Source: an uncultured Acidobacteriota bacterium
GTDB lineage: Bacteria; Acidobacteriota; Terriglobia; Acidiferrales; UBA7541
Reading direction: 5' to 3'
NCBI GenBank assembly: GCA_963804145.1
Contig: CAWDPI010000011.1
Location: forward strand, 30,563-94,562
DNA: 64,000 nucleotides
In this document: piece by piece, positions 27,476 to 28,803 of the stretch
Layout of the letters: each line of letters opens with the position of its first letter
How positions within the stretch are numbered: position 1 is the stretch's first letter
Program-made: the position numbers and the translations under genes
The notes under the pieces: model-generated
Told to the model about the DNA's origin: nothing
What the model saw: only the letters and a program-made list of their open reading frames with translations
The model's database searches: none

Positions 27476-27580
27476 CGCGCTTTCGTTTTCGGGGAATTCC
27501 AATCGCATTCGCTGGTCCCGTTCGTTCACGCTGAAAATATGGATTCAGCGCCGTCGGCAAATCCAACACGCAGCTGGACC

Positions 27581-27634
27581 AAAAAAAAAAAAAAAAAAAA
27601 AAAAAAAAAAAAAAAAAAAAAAAAAAAAAAAAAA
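27581..27634 (+). repeat. Uninterrupted 54-nt homopolymeric A tract
   Basis: Counted directly from the sequence: A at every position from 27581 to 27634, flanked by ...cagctggacc and ggctcgacgg.... Confidence 0.99.
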
Positions 27635-27678
27635 GGCTCGACGGAGTCGATCTGCTTCGGGCCCTCGCAATCTTCTTC

Positions 27679-28803
27679 GTGTTGATGAACCACGTCAACA
27701 TCCGCCTGCTGATTGCAAAGGTACCCTACCTCAAAGGCCTGCCGCACGAGCTTGTGAACGCGCTCGTCTGGAATGGCCAGCCCGGGGTCCAGATTTTTTT
27801 CGCGGTTTCCGGCTTTTTGATCACGTCGACAACGCTGCGGCGCTGGGGTTCCCTCTCTCGCGTCAGTGTGCGCGACTTCTACCTGCTCCGCTTCGCTCGC
27901 ATCGCGCCATTACTTCTGGTTTTGCTGGCTTTGCTCAGCGCCCTCCATTTAGCACACTTCAACGACTTCGTTGTCCCGGCAAAGACAGGAGGGCTCGGGC
28001 GCGCGCTCGTAGCGGCGCTCACTTTCCATGTGAATGTGCTCGAGGCGCGGCGCGGCTATCTTCCCGGCAACTGGGACATTCTTTGGTCGCTGTCTGTCGA
28101 GGAGATGTTCTACCTCTTCTTTCCGCTCGTCTGTTATGTGTTCGGCCGGGGGAAACTCTTTGTCGCGCTTCTTCTGGCGTTTGTGGTGCTCGGACCTTTC
28201 GGACGCACAGCATTCGCTCATGGCAACGAGGTGTGGCGGGAATACTCGTATCTCGCAGGGATGGACGCGATTGCTCTTGGATGCCTCACCGCTTTGCTCG
28301 TTGCGCGGCGCCAGCTCGCGCGCCGCGCCCTTTTGGCGATGGGAGGCGTTAGCATAGCGCTCCTGATTTTCAATCTCTGCTTTTCGATTCGCGCGGAGTC
28401 CTGGGAACTCGGCCGGTACGGCCTGAATTTTACAGTCCTCGCATTGGCGACGTGCATGGTCATTGCGGCCGCTGCTCAGACCAAATGGCGCAGCCCGCGT
28501 GTATTCACTCCATTCCTTTTATTGGGCCATCGCAGCTATGAGGTTTACCTGACGCACATGTTTGTCGTTTTCGGTTTTTTTCATTTATTTCTTCTGGCCG
28601 GGAAGCCGATGTGGGCGGTTCCATTACTCTTCCTCACAGTGATTCTCCTCGCAAGCGTTTTGGGTGAACTCGTCGCTCGATTTTATTCAGAGCCGATGAA
28701 TCGCTGGCTGCGCAAACGATGGGGAGATGGACCCGAGAGACTCGGTTCCGTGGTCGAAGCCGAAAGAATCACCGCGCATGGCGGAAACCGCATTGTTATA
28801 TAA
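27679..28803 (+). CDS. Acyltransferase family 3 (OafA/YrhL-like O-acyltransferase) membrane protein; 5' end disrupted by the poly(A) tract
   Basis: The 374-aa minimal ORF starts at GTG 27679. The same frame is open back to codon AGG 27634-27636, giving the canonical family N-terminus RLDGVDLLRALAIFFVLMNH. About 10 TM helices are present, with motifs such as VQIFFAVSGFLIT and WSLSVEEMFY. The likely native ATG at 27539 is out of frame as assembled. Confidence 0.85.
   Translation: MLMNHVNIRLLIAKVPYLKGLPHELVNALVWNGQPGVQIFFAVSGFLITSTTLRRWGSLSRVSVRDFYLLRFARIAPLLLVLLALLSALHLAHFNDFVVPAKTGGLGRALVAALTFHVNVLEARRGYLPGNWDILWSLSVEEMFYLFFPLVCYVFGRGKLFVALLLAFVVLGPFGRTAFAHGNEVWREYSYLAGMDAIALGCLTALLVARRQLARRALLAMGGVSIALLIFNLCFSIRAESWELGRYGLNFTVLALATCMVIAAAAQTKWRSPRVFTPFLLLGHRSYEVYLTHMFVVFGFFHLFLLAGKPMWAVPLLFLTVILLASVLGELVARFYSEPMNRWLRKRWGDGPERLGSVVEAERITAHGGNRIVI

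Follow-up and report, generated by a model that had tools for sequence, protein, structure and literature searches.

The 64-kb window analysed here (64,000 nucleotides of contig CAWDPI010000011.1, from an uncultured Acidobacteriota bacterium) carries a gene for a membrane acyltransferase of the AT3 family that is interrupted near its 5' end by an exact, uninterrupted run of 54 adenines (A54, positions 27581 to 27634, read directly from the window). The GC content of the window is 58.8%, and the homopolymer second in length after A54 measures 8 nt; in 1.58 Mb of related Acidobacteriota loci the maximum is 9 nt. Given an A frequency of 0.204, the chance of A54 is about 1e-37. The open reading frame (ORF) at 27539-27685 covers 48 codons from ATG 27539 and reads MDSAPSANPTRSWT, then 18 lysines, then an out-of-frame tail, while a second frame, RLDGVDLLRALAIFFVLMNH..., extends from AGG 27634 through a stop at 28803. 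The run begins at codon 15, and the two halves of the gene share a frame only when its length is 3n+1. An earlier note on this DNA had described the run, both frames and this arithmetic; the run is exact in the sequence, the coordinates of the first frame and the arithmetic are right, and the second frame was borne out by translation.

As assembled, the AT3 gene is null. The first in-frame starts after the run are GTG 27679 and ATG 27685, which would give a product beginning ...LMNH. A start at either position would remove the arginine of the R-X10-H motif in the first transmembrane helix (TMH1), a motif that is essential in OafA and conserved across the AT3 family (PMC7448272). Here the motif is RALAIFFVLMNH; it starts 9 residues after A54 and has the R/K-X10-H form by which the family is recognized. 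The features of the locus, together with insertions found elsewhere in the window, are collected in Table 1.

Table 1. Features of the acyltransferase locus and single-base insertions in the window (L001, L002 and L003 are related loci)
Feature	Position	Strand	Basis or comparison
Class I/II aminotransferase gene with four +1 insertions: 26382 (T), 26889 (G), 27221 (C), 27375 (T)	26257..27475	+	Alignment to L001
Site 1 in the aminotransferase gene, window CATG	26382		Relatives CAG (Gln) and ATG (Met)
Site 2, window T[G]CC	26889		Relatives TCC and GCC
Site 3, window GA[C]A	27221		Relatives GAA and GCC/ACC
Site 4, window GA[T]C	27375		Relatives GAC and GAT
First 14 codons of the AT3 gene (MDSAPSANPTRSWT)	27539..27580	+	N-terminus as in proteins P0001-P0004; DNA 100% identical to L001/L002 as far as 27581
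A54, read as 53 surplus A and the 1 native A that opens the Arg codon AGG; frame-shifting	27581..27634	+	L001/L002 alignments
Rest of the AT3 gene, 389 codons plus stop, PF01757	27634..28803	+	99.1% identical to L001, no indel
Strain-specific insertion of ~0.9 kb between the AT3 stop and the DinB-like gene; separate from the putative artefact and given as background	28804..29700	.	Absent from L001, L002 and L003; GC ~0.53-0.54
144-aa ORF within the 0.9-kb insertion	28839-29273	-	No family match
Truncated IS1-like transposase ORF	29331-29792	-	Pfam, weak, E=0.004
+1 insertion frameshifting the N-terminus of a conserved MBL/beta-CASP hydrolase gene (~32505-33897)	33790	-	Versus L001
+1 insertion in a peptidyl-prolyl isomerase (PPIase) gene (~37989-38690), within the signal-peptide region	38053	+	Versus L001
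+1 insertion (T) splitting an AsmA-like gene into frames 53834-55105 and 55104-56510	55102	+	Relatives

When 53 of the adenines are deleted, the two halves join into a perfect, intact ORF of 403 codons. The joined protein matches Pfam Acyl_transf_3 (PF01757) with a score of 94.1 bits (gathering cut-off 31; E=1.1e-26) over profile positions 2 to 324 of 326; no NCBIfam family matched the AT3 protein. The earlier note had called the enzyme "OafA-like," a description that its architecture does not support. OafA is an AT3-SGNH protein with a fused C-terminal periplasmic SGNH domain, whereas no SGNH domain fused to AT3 was found in the 403-aa restored protein, and its orthologues are about 400 aa long. 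The protein instead resembles AT3-only acyltransferases of the Oac, WecH and IcaC type, with which it shares a single PF01757 domain, a length of about 400 aa, the TMH1 R-X10-H motif and an FFxxSG-like motif (here IFFAVSGF).

A database search returned thousands of AT3 homologues. Among the matches listed, lengths were about 350 to 490 aa (mostly about 400) and identities 70 to 99%, and the named homologues among them came from Acidobacteriaceae and related groups. Judged by these matches, the gene is widely conserved and core-like, unlike a strain-variable contingency gene. Across 67 orthologous loci we found no conserved neighbourhood that might serve as a clue to its function: an aminotransferase gene adjoins the AT3 gene only in the five closest loci, and other neighbours are common to at most 8 of the 67. 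The gene is thus not embedded in a glycan cluster, and its substrate cannot be inferred from its surroundings.

Comparison with relatives bears directly on the origin of the run. Two JGI metagenome contigs, L001 and L002, are 97 to 99% identical in nucleotide sequence to the flanks of A54. In both, the alignment ends at 27581 and restarts at 27634 on the same reference base, with one A standing against the 54 of the window and no flanking base missing around the run. The five closest loci (L001 to L005) read TGG ACC AG[G/A] CTC at the junction, corresponding to ..WT-RLDG.., and the orthologous proteins read ...SWT-RLDGVD... or a close variant. No A run occurs at the junction in about 67 orthologous loci from genome assemblies, and neither a Lys nor an A run occurs there in 12 retrieved homologue proteins (among 120 listed). 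A collection of metagenome contigs was scanned for exact matches to the left flank plus at least 8 A, and none was found. The best orthologue among the GTDB representative genomes is 91% identical, so the species is unrepresented among them.

On the evidence of these alignments, the native run is a single A, and the window has 53 extra. The earlier note had proposed a native A4 to which exactly 50 A were added; since the orthologues read WT-RLDG without a lysine, that count is wrong, and the correct one is A1 plus 53. The alignment of orthologous loci that it had called for has returned a single A in the five closest loci and no run in any of them or the others. For read counting at the site, the k-mers named are GCTGGACCAGGCTCGAC and GCTGGACCAAAAAAAA.

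The rest of the AT3 gene looks ordinary. The restored gene differs from L001 at 10 codons, 6 synonymously and 4 non-synonymously, for a divergence of 0.9%. Two of the four non-synonymous differences were compared by eye, and in both the window has the residue of proteins P0002-P0012 and L001 the variant.

The aminotransferase gene immediately upstream is broken in the window by the four single-base insertions that the earlier note had reported, all of which we confirmed. It is intact in L001 (404 aa), and the window copy likewise becomes an intact 404-aa ORF once four bases are removed. Relative to L001, the corrected gene has 35 synonymous codon differences against 8 non-synonymous ones, and third positions account for 36 of the 44 substitutions. 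This pattern argues that the gene is under purifying selection up to the present, and it is incompatible with decay through four independent frameshifts. Divergence from L001 is 3.6% in the aminotransferase gene and about 1.6% in the rest of the alignment block (mostly the upstream transglycosylase gene); by this measure the aminotransferase gene is the most strain-divergent of the region. At all four sites the inserted base corresponds to an allele that relatives carry at or beside the same position (Table 1).

Insertions of the same type are found well beyond the aminotransferase gene. In the approximately 27 kb of the window that could be checked, at least seven frameshifting +1 insertions lie in four conserved genes besides the AT3 gene, and there are no frameshifting deletions. 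All seven lie outside homopolymers, and in no case does the inserted base repeat one of its neighbours. One of them splits the AsmA-like gene, which forms one ORF of about 905 aa in 14 related contigs; the genes between 47.5 and 53.6 kb are intact. Other indels relative to L001 keep the frame (net +6 at 24022-24034; AAG at 30382), are offset by another change a few bases away, or fall in non-coding DNA. The indels in the alignments are therefore of two classes, one natural and filtered by selection, the other blind to selection. In the regions that they cover, L001 and L002 lack A54 and every one of the +1 insertions.

For the census of frameshifts, a codon-usage frame plot was too noisy when used alone. 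A comparison of ORFs from stop to stop raised alarms at 51.1 kb and 52.8 kb, both of which proved to be normal adjacent genes.

Two minor features of sequence context were noted at the insertion sites. The pentamer CTGGA lies 0 to 3 nt upstream in 3 of 8 events (26889, 27221 and 27581), a weak signal with a post hoc permutation P of ~0.017. In two events (26382 and 55102) a T stands between the A and the GAAAT of AGAAAT, giving ATGAAAT; at 43 further AGAAAT sites no insertion was identified. Both contexts may be coincidence or may reflect a context bias of the consensus step.

The single-base insertions can be traced to the public record. Exact-sequence look-ups placed the RNase III, the DinB-like protein and a 136-aa protein of the window on one public contig (NCBI and ENA) of 186,164 bp. 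The same contig carries P0130, a 467-aa beta-CASP ORF that exists only with the insertion at 33790, and P0182, a 175-aa aminotransferase fragment whose ATG is created by the insertion at 26382 and whose end is caused by that at 26889. With both products on record, the single-base insertions belong to the deposited assembly and were not added to the window. The restored intact proteins were not on record in the exact-sequence look-ups. The AT3 gene itself is called on this contig from ATG 27685 (P0121), a 372-aa call that says nothing about A54, as the intact gene of L004 is called likewise.

The contig probably comes from a long-read metagenome assembly. The cluster to which P0182 belongs holds other truncated aminotransferase fragments on long ENA contigs, and one locus from a different species (L103, ENA ERZ25039546, contig_69968, 87% nucleotide identity) has 45 insertions versus 9 deletions against L001 within 4.1 kb (7000-11099). 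In L103 the transglycosylase and aminotransferase genes are fragmented, and an identical CA[T]G insertion is present at the site of window position 26382. This pattern points to systematic consensus errors in such assemblies.

We conclude that A54 is most likely an assembly or consensus artefact and not a working genetic element. The real gene of the organism almost certainly reads ...TGG ACC AGG CTC... and would encode an ordinary, intact, 403-residue AT3-only membrane acyltransferase. The earlier note had offered a technical insertion, tied to the nearby single-base insertions, as a competing explanation, and it is the one that we favour: +1 insertions of the same type also break three other genes of the window. 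We postulate that several closely related strains were collapsed into one consensus, leaving it locally of poor quality. The single-base insertions would then be places where the consensus gives the two alleles of a strain polymorphism one after the other, which is what the four sites in the aminotransferase gene suggest. Collapse with tandem alleles would explain the bias toward insertions, their non-homopolymer context, their recurrence in another assembly and their clustering in the strain-divergent aminotransferase gene.

The 53 extra adenines may have come from the same poor-consensus process, for example through one aberrant read retained where strain-specific coverage was thin. Several circumstances favour an artefact at this place: the local consensus is poor, A54 lies 207 bp past the densest cluster of errors, the gene is otherwise under selection, the run is absent from relatives and the strain-variable 0.9-kb insertion starts directly after the AT3 stop. 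We infer that the source record itself contains A54.

Some observations weigh against an artefact. The case for one is drawn from comparison only. An insertion of a 53-nt homopolymer differs in kind from insertions of 1 nt, and no second long homopolymer insertion was found in about 1.6 Mb of related assemblies; on both counts, the error mechanism suggested for the 53 A is tentative. Because no called protein spans A54, the look-ups give no direct sight of the run in the source record. Published error profiles of long reads consist mostly of homopolymer-associated deletions (PMC12007338), so a profile of insertions only, outside homopolymers, needs the strain-mixture explanation.

The consensus errors that fragment genes in long-read assemblies (PMC12007338, PMC8103633) are nevertheless the closest known parallel. 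They, too, break genes that are intact in relatives, and the events described here are private to one assembly, recur in L103 and affect genes that still appear to be under purifying selection. They differ in that all the insertions here lie outside homopolymers and are apparently tandem alleles. A 53-nt homopolymer insertion was not found as a described class of error in the literature that we looked at.

An alternative hypothesis is that the 53-A insertion is a real and very recent null mutation of the acyltransferase, with no function of its own, which could have originated by untemplated addition of A at a repaired break or by capture of the end of a polyadenylated RNA or cDNA. The clean placement of the run, with no flanking bases lost, would suit such an event, and the strain-specific 0.9-kb insertion with its IS1-like remnant just downstream marks the locus as structurally variable. 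However, a single native A offers no substrate for expansion by slippage, the AT3 gene (99.1% identical to L001) has no other signs of relaxed selection, and the same contig demonstrably has many non-biological insertions. We know of no bacterial process that inserts 53 pure A, and we regard a real mutation as unlikely. That the 53 A are real poly(dA), untemplated or derived from an RNA tail, at a repaired break and have made a hypermutable null or an ON-OFF allele of a conserved envelope acyltransferase seems to us very unlikely.

Two other natural histories were rejected. Natural pseudogenization of the aminotransferase-acyltransferase pair is contradicted by the substitution pattern and by the same kind of +1 insertion in unrelated genes 6 to 28 kb away. 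An error-prone cDNA made by reverse transcriptase, carrying a poly(A) tail and recombined into the chromosome, was considered as a source of the insertions clustered upstream of the run. As the main reading it was rejected, because substitutions are not in excess, the inserted bases agree with strain alleles, and such insertions are also found elsewhere.

It is highly improbable that a deliberate edit or a later processing step created the run and the single-base insertions in this window alone (a synthetic spike, for example, or A written over a masked gap), leaving the public record without them. Such an edit would be compatible with the fact that no called protein spans the run, but products that need the insertions at 26382, 26889 and 33790 are public (P0182, P0130). 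A gap rewritten as A would, moreover, normally replace sequence, and no flanking base is missing.

The earlier note had drawn attention to the layout of the gene as that of slipped-strand phase variation of a surface-glycan O-acyltransferase. The hypothesis would be that A54 is a contingency locus, at which slipped-strand mispairing, or slippage of RNA polymerase or the ribosome, switches the enzyme or partly restores it. It is true that the run falls within the 5' part of an AT3 coding sequence and that the frame depends on how long it is, as with the repeat tracts in the 5' coding parts of the phase-variable AT3 genes oafA of Haemophilus influenzae (PMC9558356) and pglI of Neisseria (PMC5445459). 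Those tracts, however, are short (homopolymers of at least 7 or tetranucleotide repeats), are conserved as tracts, vary in length between isolates and belong to host-adapted pathogens. Here the native state appears to be a single A, the orthologues and near-identical strains have no tract of any length, and 54 nt is far from the known tracts of about 7 to 12 nt and outside the range of about 7 to 20 nt in which homopolymers switch.

Slippage during expression fares no better. Runs of 9 to 12 A permit transcriptional slippage, and in genes of Blochmannia and Buchnera and at A11 in tssM of Citrobacter an out-of-frame gene is likewise interrupted at an A run prone to polymerase slippage (PMC3017870, PMC4256274). 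Those tracts measure 9 to 12 nt, belong to specific genes or to AT-rich ones and show conservation across populations (PMC3017870, PMC4256274), whereas this one is 54 nt long and private, and it stands in a 59% GC genome. Frameshifts rescued by slippage are recognized by a conserved tract in a gene without other decay; the AT3 gene shows no other decay, but its tract is private. An in-frame version would also insert 17 or 18 lysines (AAA codons) immediately ahead of the catalytic TMH1 motif, and rescue by slippage would add about 18. With no tract in relatives, a native A1 and a conserved, core-like AT3-only gene outside any glycan locus, we find phase variation or slippage rescue scarcely credible.

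As biology, A54 is most likely of no matter, and the organism probably has an ordinary intact acyltransferase. Its value lies in flagging data quality: in a public contig, at least seven +1 insertions disrupt genes, and a 53-base homopolymer insertion most likely adds to them. Genes broken in this way would pass for pseudogenes in an annotation or be misread as contingency loci. The tandem-allele pattern of insertion is recognizable, recurs in a second public assembly and would lend itself to a screen of other public metagenome assemblies. Were the run real, it would be without precedent among the homopolymers of high-GC bacteria and the longest known in a bacterial coding sequence.

The region around the acyltransferase gene shows further structural differences among relatives. 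L001 and L002 not only lack the 0.9-kb insertion that follows the AT3 stop in the window; they instead lack the last 13 codons of the acyltransferase. In L004 (MFD09222.bin.1.96, the closest of the GTDB genomes), a module of about 0.85 kb (9040-9900) that holds two small ORFs is inserted after the aminotransferase gene, together with a second copy of the last ~130 bp of the latter. This module appears to be another sign of a structurally variable intergenic spot before the acyltransferase.

A 123-bp segment with a strong hairpin (CCCACCCTTTG...CAAAGGGTGGG) is present once in the window (29701-29823), next to the DinB-like gene. In L003 it is found on both sides of the DinB-like gene, at 11265-11387 and 12105-12227. 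Possible identities for the segment are a terminator or a small element that is repeated or mobile.

The lowest GC content of the window (0.51) is found in about 1.5 kb at 42967-44460, where no ORF reaches 200 aa. The window also encodes a tmRNA (22295-22650, tag ANQQLALAA) and a tRNA-Ala (GGC; 34092-34167), and the tmRNA region of L003 is inverted relative to the window and stands beside a phage-type integrase gene.

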